64,000 bases of DNA from a virus (IMGVR_UViG_3300046820_002568:75883-139882); one strand, 5' to 3'; positions 54,970 to 64,000 are shown, counted from the stretch's first letter. Numbers and translations are program-made. Notes: generated from the sequence alone by a model not told the origin.

Positions 54970-57099
54970 TTAAGATGTACAAATTCTGTTAATTCTGGCA
55001 GAGAAAGGAATGTAATTTAAAAGAATTTCAGAATTATTTGGTTCGTAAATTATATATGCGTTAGTAAATCCAGTTTGTTGTCCAAGACCAATTAAACCTT
55101 CGTCGGTTAATGTGCCAATATCAATCTTTATTAAGCCAAATATGTCTGGAGATTGAACATTTAGTATATAAAGTTTATTATTTACTTCATCAATTGTCAT
55201 ACTTGTATTAGTTCCACTATATGGGGTTAAATCAAAACTAGTTGCAACTGAACCTACTCCGTCATAAACAAATAATTCATTTCCACTAACCAATAAGTAC
55301 ATGTACGAATTGGTTATATCATAAACTAATCTTTTTACCTCACCACTGTAACCACCTGATGGTATTGTTTCAGTACCAACAATTAACTTTGTTGTTGGGT
55401 CAATTCTAACAATGGTATCTCCTGAAGAAACGACCCAGAATTTGTTATCAAGTCTTGAATAAGTAATGTCGCCATTTGTAGTTGCGGTAACATTAATACT
55501 TGCATTTATTAATTGAGTTGATATGTTAATTTGTCCATAATTAGTATCGTCATTTGTAAATCCAACAAAACTATTAGTTCTATCCACTGACATGGTCTCT
55601 GTAACTATACCCGAACCAATTGTTGATGAAGTCGTATTTGTAATGTCATATAAATCTATAGCCTTTATGCTTGCATCACTACCTATATAGATAAATTCAC
55701 TACTTCCGTCATTGGCATAAACCATAGACGAGTAAGTTGCTGGACCTCCTGATAATGAATTAGGATATGTCTCAACATAAGAATAACTTGAATCGTAAAC
55801 TTCTGTACCACCAGTTGTTGCAACATATATATAACCATTATTTGGACTAATAACTTTATACACATCATTTGTTGTATTAAAATAACCAACAATATAAGGA
55901 CAGGTTTGACCTGTAGTTGAAGTTGTCGGTGTAACTGTCATTGTTGGAGTATTTGTCGGAGTCACACTTGGAGGTGTTTCTGATGGTGTTGGAGTATTAG
56001 TTGGAGTCTGAGTTAATGTAGGAGTATTAGTAGGAGTTTCCGTTACTGAAGGAGTTGGAGTATTAGTAGGAGTTTCAGTCATTGTAGGTGTAACCGTTGG
56101 TGTTTGAGTATTTGTCGGTGTGTTAGTAGGGGTTGGGGTAACGCTTTCAGTGGGTGTATTAGTAGGTGTTGGAGTCAATGTCTCAGTCACAGAAGGTGTA
56201 GGGGTATTAGTAGGTGTTACAGTTGGTGTTGGTGTTTCACTTCCCGTAGGAGTATTTGTAGGGGTTGATGTTTGAGTCGGTGTGTTAGTTGAAGTCGGTG
56301 TTGATGTTAAAGTAGGGGTTGGTGTTTTTGTTGGAGTCACTGAAGGAGGAGGTGTATTAAAAATTGAGCTTCCCTCGAAATTTAAAACAGTATTTGGAAT
56401 ATCATCGATAAATTCTACTGATGATATATAAGAAATCTGAGATAAATTATTATAATCATAATTTGAAAAAACTATCTGTGATGTACCTCTTGTTTCGCCA
56501 GATGAAATTGTAACACCTGTAAATATTTCTATTGTCGAACCCGTAATAACTTCTAAAGTATTTGTAAAATTAACTGTTATATCCTTGTCATAACTTTTTG
56601 TACTTGTTAATATATAATCAACAATTAAAGAACCTGGATAATAATATGCCTCTAAGATTAATCCATCTATATCAAAAGTTTCTTGGAATCCGCAGCACGG
56701 TAAATTTAAAGAATATAAATCAGAGAATGATGAGTTATCGGCCGCAAAAGAATCAATGACATTAACATAAAACTTTTCTTGTAAAGGTAAAATAATTACA
56801 CCATTTTCAGAAGTCACGGAAATTTGAACTTCATATCTGCCTTCTTTTATTGTGTCTTTGTTAGTGAATTGATAATTTAAATAATATAAAGTTTTCCCCT
56901 CAAATGGGGAAACTTCGGTAGTTACAAAACACTCTTTAGAAGAAAATAATATTTTATCAATTGTTTTATCAAACAATGAAATGTAAAAAGTATTATTTGA
57001 ATCTAAAAATGAATTCAAATTAAAATCGCTTCTACCGTCCCTACATATCTCAACCTTTAGAACAGGAAGAGTGGCATTTTTTTTAATATAAAATTCCAT
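54970..57099 (-). CDS. Putative virion fibre/adhesin: BppU-like N-domain, mucin-like Thr/Pro stalk, C-terminal beta-propeller
   Basis: N-terminus paralogous to 57099-57467; ~145-aa TPT repeat; blades such as [29 protein letters not shown]. Confidence 0.7.
55915..56355 (-). repeat. Mucin-like (TPT[NPVE]) peptide repeat
   Basis: [19 protein letters not shown] units, codon-diverged at the DNA level. Confidence 0.95.
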
Positions 57100-57467
57100 T
57101 ATCCTCTTATAAAGTTTTCAACTATGTTTATATAAAGTTTTTCTTTTATTGGTAAAATCAAAGTACCATCATCATTAATAAAAACAAATTCGCCCTCATA
57201 TCTACCAACTTTATTGGTGTCACGAAGATTGAATTTATAATAAATATAATACTCTACTTTACTGTTAGGTTCAATAAAAACTTTATTGGTGAATCCCGCC
57301 TTTTTATTTAATATTTTGTAATTACCATCCACCACATTTTTCATAGAAAAAAAAATGGAAGAATTCTCAATTATTGAGTTAAATTCTTCCATTGAAGATT
57401 TTCCATTATAATCCAATTCCATTTTTAGAACTGGCAAAGTAGAATTCTGAGTTATATAAAATTCCAT
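57099..57467 (-). CDS. Stand-alone BppU-N-like (Ig-like) protein
   Basis: [18 protein letters not shown]...YYKF...DT...GRYEGEF...LILP. Confidence 0.6.
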
Positions 57468-57471
57468 ATAT

Positions 57472-57478
57472 ATAAATA
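57472..57478 (-). promoter_or_regulatory. Putative late promoter TATTTAT
   Basis: 4 nt upstream of ATG 57467. Confidence 0.6.
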
Positions 57479-57483
57479 TGGAA

Positions 57484-61776: not shown

Positions 61777-61778
61777 TC

Positions 61779-63026
61779 CTATTGTAAATTACCTGTTATT
61801 CTTTCACCCCAACCCTTTGATTTAGAGTATGGCCATACAACCCAATACTTTGGTTTAATTGTGGTTTGGAATTCTCTCCATACCTTACAATATCCATCGG
61901 GGTCATTTTTCATACTTCTAATTTCATTTGGGTCAGCATCTCTTCTGTAAATTGTTTCATCGTTTTCATCATGAAATGCGACTGCCCAAAAATCATAATC
62001 TTCTTCAGGAACTTGGTGATAACCAATATCAATACAGTGTTTAAAAATTGATGCAAATGAATTCATCCAATCTTCTTCACTTGCATAGTTGTAAGTGTTT
62101 GGCGGATATTTTTTATCTATAGTTTCTTGTTGGATTGCTCTTTTTGAAAATAATAATCCTGAATATTTTTCATAGTCTCTAAGAGTTCTAACTGGTCCAA
62201 ATCCAAAAATTCCGTGGTCCATCGGCTCCTCATTATCCATTCCAAACAAAGCCCTATTTTTTTTATGACAAAAATTATTTCTTTCTACCCATTTTTTATC
62301 ATCATCCCATTGTTTTGTTCTACCTTTACGAGTATACTCATGCCAAATAAGAACTTTATGAGGATGGAATAAATCATAACCCCAAGTATAAGCTCTTGCC
62401 GCGATTGAAATCTCTTCTCCGTGGAAATAGTAATCAGGGTCATGTTGGACTTCTTTTGAAAACTCTCCTAAAGTGAAGCAATAGTGAGCTGAGTAAAATC
62501 TTGCAGTTACAGGTTCTTTTAAATCTTGCCAACCAGGTATTGTCTCGGGCAAAAAGAATACTGCTCCCTCAGGAATAAACCTATCAAAGGTCATTCTCCA
62601 AGGCTCTTGAATCCTACTTTGTGGGTCATTATCAGGGTCAAATGACGAAACATAACCTGTCAAAAGTGGCTTTGGATGACCTTTCTTTTGAAGTTGTTTA
62701 ATCATTTTAATCATCTCATCGTCCCAATTTGGAGCGAATCTCATATGAGAATCAATTTGAAGAGTATATTCTTCTCCCTCATATAATTGTTGGATTAAAT
62801 GTCTTGCCCAACAGGCACCTTTTGAATCTAAATAAGGTATATTTAAAATTCTAAATCTTTTGTCATCACTATATTCTGACAAATCGTCAAATCCATCTTC
62901 AGGATGAAATTGACGAGCAATACCAAAAACTAAATTTTTTGGTTTTTTTGCATTTTCAATCGCGGATTTGATTGTTTTAATTAACTCAGGGTCTCTATAA
63001 GACGCAATTTGAATAAAAATTTTCAT
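61779..63026 (-). CDS. GT60-like polypeptide alpha-GlcNAc transferase (Gnt1/Gnt2 family)
   Basis: IFIQIASYRDPEL..T, SKGACWAR, LQIDSHMRF..WD (DxH), FHGEE...AARAYTWGYD.FHP. Confidence 0.85.
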   Translation of the reverse strand: MKIFIQIASYRDPELIKTIKSAIENAKKPKNLVFGIARQFHPEDGFDDLSEYSDDKRFRILNIPYLDSKGACWARHLIQQLYEGEEYTLQIDSHMRFAPNWDDEMIKMIKQLQKKGHPKPLLTGYVSSFDPDNDPQSRIQEPWRMTFDRFIPEGAVFFLPETIPGWQDLKEPVTARFYSAHYCFTLGEFSKEVQHDPDYYFHGEEISIAARAYTWGYDLFHPHKVLIWHEYTRKGRTKQWDDDKKWVERNNFCHKKNRALFGMDNEEPMDHGIFGFGPVRTLRDYEKYSGLLFSKRAIQQETIDKKYPPNTYNYASEEDWMNSFASIFKHCIDIGYHQVPEEDYDFWAVAFHDENDETIYRRDADPNEIRSMKNDPDGYCKVWREFQTTIKPKYWVVWPYSKSKGWGERITGNLQ

Positions 63027-63091
63027 TAAATTACTTGATTTACTAAAAAGTAATTTGAAATTAATTTATTCTAAATAGTAACTTAAAAAAA

Positions 63092-64000
63092 TTAACAGTA
63101 CCCCGTACCAGTACCACAACATGGGCAGTTTTGGACTACTGTAATCCACGGTCCAATTGTGCCTAAGTTAGTTATCGGGAATGCTGTACATATGTTAACT
63201 GTAGTATTTGATGGTGATAACTGAGTACTTGCAGGAGGGAATCCGTCAAAACAAGATAAATATTCAACATTAAATGTGTTTTGAGATATGTTAGTTACCG
63301 TATAACAATAACAAAAATCAACTTGTTGGTCAAAACATTCTATTACAGGCCCACATCCGGATGTTGAAGGTGTTACAGTTGGGGTTGAGGTGACAGTTGG
63401 TGTAACGCTATTTGTAGGGGTTACAGTAGGAGTGATAGTTGGTGTTACTGACGCAGTAATTGAAGGAGTTATACTCACGGATGGAGTAATTGTTGCGGTA
63501 ACTGAAGGAGTAATTGTCGGTGTAATTGAAGGTGTTATACTTATAGATGGAGTAATAGTTGGTGTAATTGATGGTGTTGGTGTATTTGTAGGTGTTGGAC
63601 TTTGTGACAACTCAGGACTTGGTGTCACTGACGCAGTAATTGATGGAGTTATACTAATTGAAGGAGTAATTGTTGGTGTAATTGAAGGAGTAATTGTTGG
63701 TGTAATTGAAGGTGTTATACTTATAGATGGAGTAATAGTTGGTGTAATTGATGGAGTTATACTAATTGAAGGAGTAATTGTTGGTGTAATTGAAGGAGTA
63801 ATTGTTGGCGTAATCGATGGAGTAATTGATGGTGTTATACTTACGGATGGAGTAATTGATGGTGTTATACTTGCGGATGGGGTGTTTGTTGGGGTAATTG
63901 AAGGTGTATTTGTTGGGGTAATTGAAGGTGTATTTGTTGGAGTAATTGAAGGAGTAACTGTTTTTGTTGGCGTAATTGAAGGAGTAACTGTTTTTGTTGG
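63092..64000 (-). CDS. Partial protein with a long mucin-like Thr/Ser/Pro stalk and Cys-rich C-terminal domain (start lies beyond the window)
   Basis: Frame open from 64000 to stop at 63092; the ORF track start 63628 is an internal GTG. Confidence 0.8.
   Translation of the reverse strand, partial: PTKTVTPSITPTKTVTPSITPTNTPSITPTNTPSITPTNTPSASITPSITPSVSITPSITPSITPTITPSITPTITPSISITPSITPTITPSISITPSITPTITPSITPTITPSISITPSITASVTPSPELSQSPTPTNTPTPSITPTITPSISITPSITPTITPSVTATITPSVSITPSITASVTPTITPTVTPTNSVTPTVTSTPTVTPSTSGCGPVIECFDQQVDFCYCYTVTNISQNTFNVEYLSCFDGFPPASTQLSPSNTTVNICTAFPITNLGTIGPWITVVQNCPCCGTGTGYC
63365..64000 (-). repeat. Tandem repeat encoding TPSI/TPTI/TPTN/TPTKTV units
   Basis: 12-nt (4-codon) periodicity, with recent near-exact 24-30 nt duplications near the window end. 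Confidence 0.95.

Follow-up and report, generated by a model that had tools for sequence, protein, structure and literature searches.

A candidate O-glycosylation cassette pairing a GT60 enzyme with a tandem glycosyltransferase among Thr/Pro-repeat genes of an environmental jumbo phage

What would a bacteriophage glycosylate with a cluster of glycosyltransferase (GT) and methyltransferase (MTase) genes set between genes for threonine- and proline-rich repeat proteins? The question is raised by the end of IMGVR_UViG_3300046820_002568, a 139,882-bp IMG/VR virus record (about 48% complete by CheckV) whose last 64 kb are the stretch analysed here, hereafter the window; the contig ends where the window ends. 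Seven co-oriented minus-strand open reading frames (ORFs) occupy positions 54970-64000 of the window (Table 1), all of them found where an initial annotation had described a co-oriented block. On balance, and with a confidence little better than even, we favour the explanation that this cassette equips appendage proteins of the phage itself, those with Thr/Pro repeats, with a methylated O-glycan that a GT60-family enzyme would initiate and a tandem HtrL-GT2 transferase would extend. Phage virions are usually regarded as unglycosylated, the few exceptions, mycobacteriophages and the giant eukaryotic viruses, using other enzyme families, and virus-encoded protein glycosylation as such is already known from chloroviruses, mimiviruses and mycobacteriophages. 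Glycosylation of the Thr/Pro tracts is suggested here by synteny, by the chemistry of the GT60 family and by Schiff-stained virion bands in the cultured phage XacN1.

The evidence of synteny comes from 161 IMG/VR loci in which GT60 is 46-90% identical to that of the window, together with contigs at 36-37% identity and cultured phages; lineages were dereplicated at 90, 75 and 60% GT60 identity, and 5 kb was required on both sides. At these three levels 48 of 65, 26 of 34 and 8 of 10 lineages have a Thr/Pro ORF no farther than 5 kb from GT60. Random 1.24-kb intervals placed in five genomes give 0.315 (p = 3e-12, 9e-8 and 0.002), and of 28 loci of the same clade centred on the large subunit of ribonucleotide reductase (RNR) none has such an ORF (Fisher p = 2e-12). 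The co-occurrence proposed as a check in the initial annotation is thus present in relatives, and the flanking is above chance. At closer range, 43% of lineages (90% dereplication) have a Thr/Pro ORF within 500 nt of GT60 as against at most 15.5% at random, and one complete 297-kb genome (G005, GT60 60% identical) has four of its five Thr/Pro ORFs less than 10 kb from GT60 (p = 1e-4). On the contig of the window alone, two such ORFs within 10 kb against about 1.1 expected could be chance. A co-oriented Thr/Pro ORF stands directly upstream of GT60 in 83 of the 161 loci, and with repeats masked these upstream ORFs fall into 17 BLAST clusters; the slot evidently turns over while the Thr/Pro tract is kept. 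The tips found in this slot include legume-lectin-like, LamG, RCC1 and small Cys-bracketed domains.

The initiating step is assigned to the product of the gene that follows the contig-end repeat gene, which matches the GT60 profile PF11397 at 232 bits against a cut-off of 21, over profile positions 2-43 and 97-348 of 352. In an alignment of 19 diverse members (A1), D91, S92 and H93 are nearly invariant and E197 and E198 invariant, and the motifs IASYRDPEL, CWAR, Q-x-DSH-x-RF..WD, GEE and WHEY are kept in members at 29-42% identity, so that the DSH and FHGEE strings from which GT60 had been recognised are conserved family motifs. Characterised GT60 enzymes are all polypeptide alpha-N-acetylglucosamine (GlcNAc) transferases, acting on mucin-like Ser/Thr tracts in Dictyostelium and Trypanosoma cruzi or on hydroxyproline of Skp1 (PMC8724618, PMC6939170), and by this analogy the phage protein is proposed to be an initiating polypeptide N-acetylhexosamine (HexNAc) transferase, specifically for GlcNAc. 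Its maximum 19-residue Kyte-Doolittle mean is 0.63 and its N-terminus leads straight into the GT-A core, with no type II anchor; a membrane-bound, Golgi-like topology was rejected for lack of a transmembrane segment. The Skp1-type hydroxyproline route was also rejected. The prolyl 4-hydroxylase (P4H)-type 2-oxoglutarate-Fe(II) oxygenase family PF13640 is missing both in G000, the partial contig of the window, and in eight of the nine related genome records searched (six of them at least 97% complete, only G003 positive), and hydroxyproline is therefore unlikely to be used in this clade, Thr or Ser being the likelier acceptor. Over 44 related loci mean identity is 79% for GT60, 70% for the family-B DNA polymerase (PolB), 54% for the tandem GT and 46% for the small protein p122, and GT60 is more conserved than PolB in 40 of the 44, which fits a constant first step on fixed substrates and a glycan that varies beyond it.

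The family is large: 7449 proteins score at E<=1e-10 among 8000 candidates, and 4595 clusters, formed at 50% identity, came from a second search. Single chains in the protein library hold as many as four GT60 domains over 1600-2500 aa (P0122, P0123, P0125), and some phages have two adjacent GT60 genes (L152 11245-12549). Scans of viral contigs with a single distant GT60 query recovered one locus (P0162) or none (P0146), and an alignment-based scan was needed. Against PDB sequences, neither GT60 nor the 504-aa protein nor the profiles A1 and A2 found a useful match; the sole matches were MTases, for the N-terminus of the 776-aa protein. The PHROGs category of the GT60 phrog is 'moron, auxiliary metabolic gene and host takeover'.

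Among cultured phages GT60 is found only in the jumbo phages XacN1 and Xoo-sp13 of Xanthomonas and CM1 and RAS14 of Stenotrophomonas, at 45-47% identity. In XacN1, ORF334 is the GT60 homologue (47% identity) and ORF330 the HtrL-GT2 homologue (39%). Purified XacN1 virions show at least two Schiff-stained glycoprotein bands (PMC5852040, Fig. S4), and ORF328 and ORF334 were proposed by the authors of that study as their cause (PMC5852040). As in the window, GT60 and HtrL-GT2 of this group lie near DNA polymerase with tailoring enzymes between them and a giant Thr/Pro-linker protein nearby, and XacN1 encodes a 3313-aa protein with a Thr/Pro linker after its baseplate wedge genes; unlike the window, XacN1 has a carbamoyltransferase rather than an MTase as tailoring gene and no long Thr/Pro-repeat gene directly upstream, and the hosts of the group are high-GC gammaproteobacteria. 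Farther away, in L091 (logan SRR33375164 contig) and L092, GT60 at 36-37% identity is placed among DNA methylase, DnaB, RuvB-like, PfkB kinase and dCMP-deaminase genes; in L091 HtrL and a CmcI-like MTase again accompany it, and the 13 kb available contain no Thr/Pro ORF. One locus at 27% GC, L163 (IMGVR_UViG_GVMAG-M-3300014493-9_000001), carries a label for a giant-virus metagenome-assembled genome and encodes GT60 at 54% and HtrL-GT2 at 41% identity; it is either a mis-binned jumbo phage or a sign that the module is also present in nucleocytoplasmic large DNA viruses.

The conserved companion of GT60, which may lie on either side of it, is a homologue of residues ~215-775 of the 776-aa protein, and the pair is retained down to 37% GT60 identity, XacN1 and RAS14 included. 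GT60 and the HtrL-GT2 tandem transferase together form the conserved system, to which the 504-aa gene and the gene for the 134-aa protein p134 are lineage-specific additions. The 776-aa protein consists of a class-I MTase (aa 1 to ~200), an HtrL_YibB domain (aa ~215-485) and a GT2/GT13-like GT-A domain with an EDD motif (aa ~504-771), as the initial annotation had it in describing an MTase-HtrL-GT fusion. HtrL_YibB (PF09612) is matched at 68 bits against a cut-off of 24.1 and the NCBIfam YibB equivalog (TIGR02192) is missed at 61.5 against 264.9 bits, which makes the domain a relative, not an orthologue, of E. coli YibB; the profile search proposed for PF11397 and HtrL_YibB therefore gave both families above cut-off. 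The C-terminal GT2-like domain is weak by Pfam (0.0026) and has a clear GT-A fold in the AlphaFold2 (AF2) model, which covers residues ~215-775 at a pLDDT of 89.6 and contains two GT-A domains, as structure prediction had been proposed to reveal. In VIA comparisons the HtrL domain resembles the retaining GT6 enzyme BoGT6a (Z 13.4, root-mean-square deviation (rmsd) 3.5, 200 aa) and the ABO transferases (Z ~12.7), and the C-terminal domain resembles GT2/GT12/GT13 enzymes, namely B4GALNT1 (Z 14.8, rmsd 3.9, 204 aa), GnT-I (14.0) and POMGnT1 (13.9); chains that match across both domains are LH3, COLGALT1, LARGE1, K4CP, PmHS2 and mimivirus R699. An FFEDDMFF motif is conserved in the tandem GT (alignment A2). 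These models suggest that 'HtrL' is here the first half of a double glycosyltransferase, fold alone proving no function, and that each GT-A domain has a nucleotide-sugar site. Of the three further GT domains originally counted beside GT60, the two of this protein are firm by structure and the third, in the 504-aa protein, is weak.

The interval from GT60 to the tandem GT is a variable island, 8 nt to 7.6 kb long across relatives, with 70 protein clusters, and representatives of the 20 commonest were scanned against Pfam. Twelve of the 20 match a family, in every case a sugar-handling one, and the other eight have no match; the families are RMNT/CmcI-like and FkbM MTases, carbamoyltransferase (2.5e-64), GT10 fucosyltransferase (6e-13), GT25-like, GT2 and GT1 enzymes, a second GT60 (8e-56) and a HAD-nucleotidyltransferase fusion, and these 20 clusters, the commonest of the 70, include no flippase, polymerase, ligase or polyprenyl-phosphate transferase. 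The HAD fusion, as found in the island of L104 (3330-4700), joins a HAD phosphatase to a sugar-1-phosphate nucleotidyltransferase, and some phages may supply their own nucleotide sugar. The tandem GT has gained an N-terminal MTase at least three separate times, from three unrelated families: FkbM (L008, L067, L148), TylF (L051, L115, L160) and class-I MTase_23 (the window at 57484-59814, and L168). Enzymes of the TylF and FkbM families O-methylate sugars or metabolites that bear sugars, and the three independent fusions, taken with this chemistry, therefore make a methylated glycan a reasonable prediction. The earlier claim that the system methylates its product can stand as likely on the sequences of the three fused families. 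The 504-aa protein had been annotated as an MTase-GT fusion, which is plausible but weak, both domains being below cut-off (Methyltransf_24, E=0.0016; Glycos_transf_2, E=8.8e-4); it is present in 3 of the 80 closest loci, and its halves are found separately in relatives.

The candidate acceptors encoded at the two ends of the cassette are modular proteins. The Thr/Pro stalks said to flank the block are both present and measure 153 aa in the 709-aa protein (residues 248-400; 44% Thr, 24% Pro) and at least 214 residues in the contig-end protein (32% Thr, 21% Pro, 18% Ser, 16% Ile). The former contains TPTNTPT eight times and the units PTVT and TETP, already recognised in the initial annotation, twice each; the latter closes with the Cys-rich tip likewise described there, 88 aa with 10 Cys. 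DNA of the longer tract is a degenerate tandem repeat with periods of 12, 24, 30 and 108 nt, and as the contig ends inside it the assembly probably broke there; a 203-aa ORF on the plus strand (63390-63998) is an antisense shadow of the repeat and not a gene. The contig-end protein, and hence its tip, has no match in the 80 closest loci by SEG-filtered tblastn at E<=1e-5. In the 709-aa protein a p122-like domain (aa 1-120) and a middle domain precede the stalk, and a 309-aa C-terminal domain follows it that is related to repeated modules of a 2680-aa DUF285/DUF5122 protein of the same phage. A propeller tip had been proposed for this protein and was not confirmed, the C-terminal 309 aa having no Pfam match and a top internal-repeat window of 36 against a shuffled maximum of 37.9±5.2; the domain is possibly a beta-propeller.

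How such proteins might be held in a virion is suggested by p122, a paralogue of the 709-aa N-terminus (36% identity, 8.5e-15 by blastp), whose gene type is kept between the HtrL gene and PolB in this clade. Related loci supply 52 distinct p122 homologues, each 100-150 aa long, and alignment A3 includes 28 of these. The AF2 model of p122 (pLDDT 84.8) is an immunoglobulin (Ig)-like sandwich, and the top three VIA matches are baseplate proteins: TP901-1 BppU (4v96_AA; Z 8.7, rmsd 2.7, 97 aa), 80alpha (8.5) and NF5 (8.3), with generic Ig folds at Z <=7.6. By Foldseek alone the matches are generic Ig-like ones (E ~1e-3), and BppU_N (PF10651) gives no Pfam match at E<=5 on either p122 or the 709-aa N-terminus; one cluster among the Atlas feature neighbours carries BppU_N in 12% of its members. 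p122 and the 709-aa N-terminal domain are a candidate BppU_N-like baseplate-anchor module, a suggestive and not a firm assignment, and from this modelled anchor fold and from the adhesin-type domains we infer that the Thr/Pro proteins are virion fibres.

Brought together, these features suggest a cytoplasmic pathway that would act, within the infected cell, on Thr/Pro-repeat proteins of the phage itself. No membrane segment or signal peptide is present in any of the seven proteins, and for the enzymes cytoplasmic action is therefore expected. Soluble GT60 would put the first HexNAc (by family analogy alpha-GlcNAc from UDP-GlcNAc) on Thr or Ser of the Thr/Pro tracts, with peptides of the types TPTNTPT, ITPSITPT and ITPSITPTITPS as candidate acceptors. 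The tandem GT-A enzyme, with its GT6-like HtrL and GT2-like domains, would then add the next two sugars or polymerise a disaccharide, and the glycan would be finished here by the fused class-I MTase and the putative MTase-GT2 protein, and in relatives by FkbM or TylF MTases, carbamoyltransferase, GT10 fucosyltransferase, GT25, GT1 or a second GT60. As substrates one would expect adhesin-like modular proteins that combine a small anchor and a Thr/Pro stalk with a tip of varying type (Cys-rich, lectin, LamG, RCC1 or propeller-like), and at least one of them would probably dock on the baseplate through its BppU_N-like domain. Gene identities and folds, the core of GT60 and tandem GT, the variability of the sugar-tailoring island and the positional link to Thr/Pro genes are what the data show. 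We infer the donor sugar, the acceptor and the virion location, and likewise the benefit, which might lie in stiff, hydrated, protease-resistant stalks or in antigenic or adhesive variation.

Several observations weigh against this explanation. Linkers rich in Thr/Pro are common as flexible spacers, a role for which no glycan is needed. The contig of the window has at least six more Thr/Pro-rich ORFs elsewhere, so that such proteins also occur far from GT60, and no Thr/Pro ORF was found within 10 kb of GT60 (21 kb sampled) in L099-L101, L104-L106, L108, L134-L136, L140, L141, L165, L167 and L168. Adjacency within 500 nt is not significant at 60% dereplication (2 of 10 lineages), and the p-values overstate independence because the loci share ancestry. 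The more distant GT60 genes of L091 and L092 lie amid replication and DNA-methylase genes. The Schiff-stained bands of XacN1 are not assigned to named proteins or tied to ORF334, the donor and acceptor of the phage GT60 are drawn by analogy from distant eukaryotic relatives, and virion membership of the Thr/Pro proteins leans on models in which the BppU_N-like match of p122 is only about one Z unit over generic Ig folds. Finally, the Cys-bracketed domains suggest an oxidising extracellular setting, as opposed to the cytoplasmic one of the enzymes.

The most serious alternative, unlikely in itself, is that other virion proteins are the acceptors, the cassette glycosylating capsid, sheath or tail-tube subunits with the Thr/Pro genes linked to it by module inheritance only. 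The known precedents modify the major capsid or tail-tube proteins (Freeman et al. 2023, cited in PMC12582341, for mycobacteriophages; Vp54 of PBCV-1, cited in PMC5852040); just a few virion bands are Schiff-positive in XacN1, and some GT60 lineages have no Thr/Pro ORF nearby. Golgi-type GT60 enzymes, on the other side, favour Thr-rich mucin tracts (PMC8724618). The slot upstream of GT60 is moreover filled by at least 17 unrelated Thr/Pro proteins, and the enrichment over both random and RNR controls is strong. Quite improbable is a role in remodelling a host envelope glycan, whether lipopolysaccharide (LPS) core or O-antigen, capsule or glycolipid, for superinfection exclusion or for freeing progeny from debris. 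HtrL/YibB is located in the LPS core cluster of E. coli, families such as GT25, GT10, GT9, FkbM and carbamoyltransferase are typical of LPS/O-antigen or Nod-factor pathways, and the PHROGs category of the GT60 phrog would suit such a role; yet the score of the HtrL domain is far from the YibB equivalog cut-off, the enzymes have no membrane segment, no flippase, ligase or initiating polyprenyl-phosphate transferase appears among the 20 commonest island clusters, and no characterised GT60 has a lipid or polysaccharide acceptor. The same core is found in Xanthomonas phages and in low-GC freshwater phages, and its presence in phages of such different hosts argues against a host-specific glycan acceptor.

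That the cassette hypermodifies phage DNA, placing a glycan on hydroxymethyl- or hydroxy-pyrimidines against restriction, is highly improbable. The idea draws on its neighbourhood, which is PolB here and DNA polymerase/RNase H in XacN1, with distant GT60 genes beside DnaB, DNA methylases and dCMP deaminase, on weak TAGT matches of the C-terminal GT-A domain (E = 0.09 to 4.5e-4), and on the existence of phage DNA GTs of GT-A fold with diverse glycans (bioRxiv 10.1101/2023.12.21.572611). The TAGT cut-off is never reached, however (best 26 bits against 27.5), the GT60 family has no known DNA activity, and the motifs published for DNA GTs, R...DDD...EDY/F, are those of a different GT-A group (bioRxiv 10.1101/2023.12.21.572611). 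The thymidylate-synthase family (PF00303), one of the two known routes to hydroxylated pyrimidines, is absent from the complete or near-complete genomes G003, G005 and G008. Tet/JBP (PF12851) was not found in five complete relatives, a negative of little weight since the control search was silent in every genome; DNA glycosylation, like the hydroxyproline route, finds little support. Least probable of all is that GT60 glycosylates a host protein as a takeover effector in the manner of toxin glycosyltransferases, the other GTs acting elsewhere. Gnt1, the closest soluble GT60, does modify a single regulatory protein, Skp1, 'host takeover' is part of the PHROGs category, and the very high conservation of GT60 could mirror a conserved host target. 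A single-site effector would need no conserved tandem GT and no variable tailoring island, however, and the prolyl hydroxylase partner is absent in most relatives, while the module is present in phages of unrelated hosts.

Glycosylation of the phage's own Thr/Pro stalks, the explanation we prefer, has partial parallels in known systems. The protist enzymes (Dictyostelium Gnt2/ModB and Gnt1, T. cruzi OGNT) share with the phage protein the PF11397/GT60 family and the DSH and GEE motifs. Cytoplasmic Gnt1 is soluble like the phage GT60 and differs in having a prolyl hydroxylase partner, which most phage relatives lack; for Golgi Gnt2 and OGNT the candidate acceptors here are comparable, being Thr/Pro-rich tracts with PTVT-type units, whereas the phage enzyme is without a membrane anchor. 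The phage enzyme, whose activity is predicted, further differs in having a conserved C-terminal extension of its own of ~110 aa within its 415 aa and in being paired with an HtrL-GT2 tandem transferase and not with eukaryotic extension enzymes. In mycobacteriophages, cytoplasmic GTs of the phage are proposed or shown to O-glycosylate its own structural proteins (Freeman et al. 2023, cited in PMC12582341). Chlorovirus PBCV-1 A064R (GT-GT-methyltransferase) and mimivirus R699/L230 are likewise virus-encoded cytoplasmic multi-domain enzymes that join GT domains and a sugar methyltransferase, and in Foldseek the tandem GT-A model aligns with R699 over both domains (E = 9e-11), though with a low TM score (0.28) and a high rmsd because the domains are oriented differently. 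These are eukaryotic viruses, their acceptors are N-glycans or collagen hydroxylysine, and the domain order of A064R differs, as does its sugar, which is rhamnose. The mycobacteriophage enzymes of Freeman et al. 2023 (Cell Host Microbe) reportedly belong to other GT families, with no GT60 among them, and are said to act in phages of actinobacterial hosts on C-terminal parts of capsid and tail-tube subunits rather than on long Thr/Pro appendage stalks. LARGE1, LH3/COLGALT1, K4CP and PmHS2 also have two GT-A domains per chain and extend protein glycans or polymerise disaccharide repeats; LARGE1, which adds a repeating disaccharide to the O-glycans that alpha-dystroglycan carries on its mucin-like domain, is a close functional analogy. 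There is no detectable sequence similarity to these bifunctional enzymes, the first domain here is GT6-like and of HtrL type, and a polymerase activity of the phage enzyme is pure conjecture. The cassette differs from known virus glycosylation in its proposed GT60 initiator and its Thr/Pro-stalk candidate acceptors; full-text literature searches yielded no published description of it and no relevant paper on GT60 in phages or on PF11397.

A bolder extension, rather unlikely as it stands, is that a very abundant freshwater and marine clade of jumbo phages makes true mucin-like glycoproteins, with a GT60 initiator, a type known elsewhere from protists alone, densely priming the stalks, the tandem GT-A enzyme polymerising a repeating disaccharide in the style of LARGE1 and matriglycan, and the fast-evolving island adding methyl, carbamoyl and fucosyl groups, to give a variable 'glycocalyx' on adhesin-tipped appendages. 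It is also conceivable that eukaryotic GT60 arose from the phage genes, or the phage genes from it. If the stalks are indeed glycosylated, environmental phages would have a widespread layer of post-translational modification that accounts for the length and frequency of Thr/Pro 'linkers' in appendage proteins and that matters for the stability, adhesion and host range of phages and for their recognition by immune systems or grazers, and soluble single-polypeptide enzymes would become available for making mucin-like glycoproteins in bacteria.

Table 1. Genes and domains at the end of the window, in the order of transcription on the minus strand
Feature	Position (nt)	Strand	Basis
Thr/Pro/Ser/Ile-repeat protein, 5' end cut off at contig end	63092..64000	-	composition; ITP[ST] x29
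Repeat tract of the same	63359-64000		composition
Cys-rich C-terminal tip of the same	63095-63358		composition
GT60-family glycosyltransferase, 415 aa, soluble	61779..63026	-	PF11397 1.8e-68; phrog_24687 1.6e-165
504-aa putative MTase and GT2-like fusion	60262..61776	-	sub-threshold Pfam matches; phrog_24975 5.2e-13
134-aa protein (p134), hypothetical	59839..60243	-	no Pfam, PHROG, NCBIfam match
776-aa MTase-HtrL-GT2 enzyme	57484..59814	-	HtrL_YibB 1.3e-18; Methyltransf_23 6.6e-8
HtrL_YibB domain of the same	58360-59172		PF09612; AF2 model
GT2/GT13-like GT-A domain of the same	57502-58305		AF2 model
122-aa Ig-like beta-sandwich protein (p122)	57099..57467	-	AF2 model; paralogue of 709-aa N-terminal domain
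709-aa modular protein with Thr/Pro stalk	54970..57099	-	composition; phrog_15511
Thr/Pro stalk of the same	55900-56358		composition
309-aa C-terminal domain of the same	54973-55899		related to modules of 2680-aa protein
PolB	51948-54875		

The cassette is compact: its intergenic gaps, in order, are 65, 2, 18, 24 and 16 nt, the final two genes overlap by 1 nt, and PolB comes after the 709-aa gene. For p134 a DUF4254 identity, as first annotated, was rejected, the match to PF14063 having E=0.075 and 13.3 bits against a cut-off of 27 over only 17 residues; p134 is absent from the 80 closest loci, and viral hypothetical proteins make up its Atlas feature neighbours, one cluster of which has DUF6165 in 20% of its members. 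Consensus scans did no better than shuffles for promoters (76 promoter-like sites against 67±8) or terminators (6 terminator-like sites against 5.9), and no operon boundaries are claimed. The motif TATTTAT stands 11 nt before the start of p122 and, across the window, 9-24 nt upstream of starts 10364, 12707, 35111, 39586, 41986, 47056, 49744, 50491 and 57467, so that it precedes several large structural genes and p122 but not GT or replication genes; with 14 and 15 copies per strand in 64 kb, at or below a rough base-composition estimate of ~30 per strand, it may, as a weak hint, be a late-promoter element.

The window, at ~32% GC, encodes tail sheath, baseplate J, both RNR subunits, a DnaB-like helicase, a 5'-3' exonuclease, an SNF2 helicase and PolB, and complete genomes of relatives are 295-322 kb, so that the phage is taken to be a jumbo myophage; sample numbers suggest an origin in freshwater metagenomes. 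Further Thr/Pro-linked modular proteins are encoded by the same phage at 37829-45874 (plus strand), 66940-70251 (minus) and 74141-76693 (minus) of G000, and carry DUF285, DUF5122, SprB, PKD/Ig-like and M43 metallopeptidase domains, types typical of Bacteroidota surface proteins, which hints at a host in that phylum. Another Thr/Pro protein of the phage is placed at the edge of the baseplate module.

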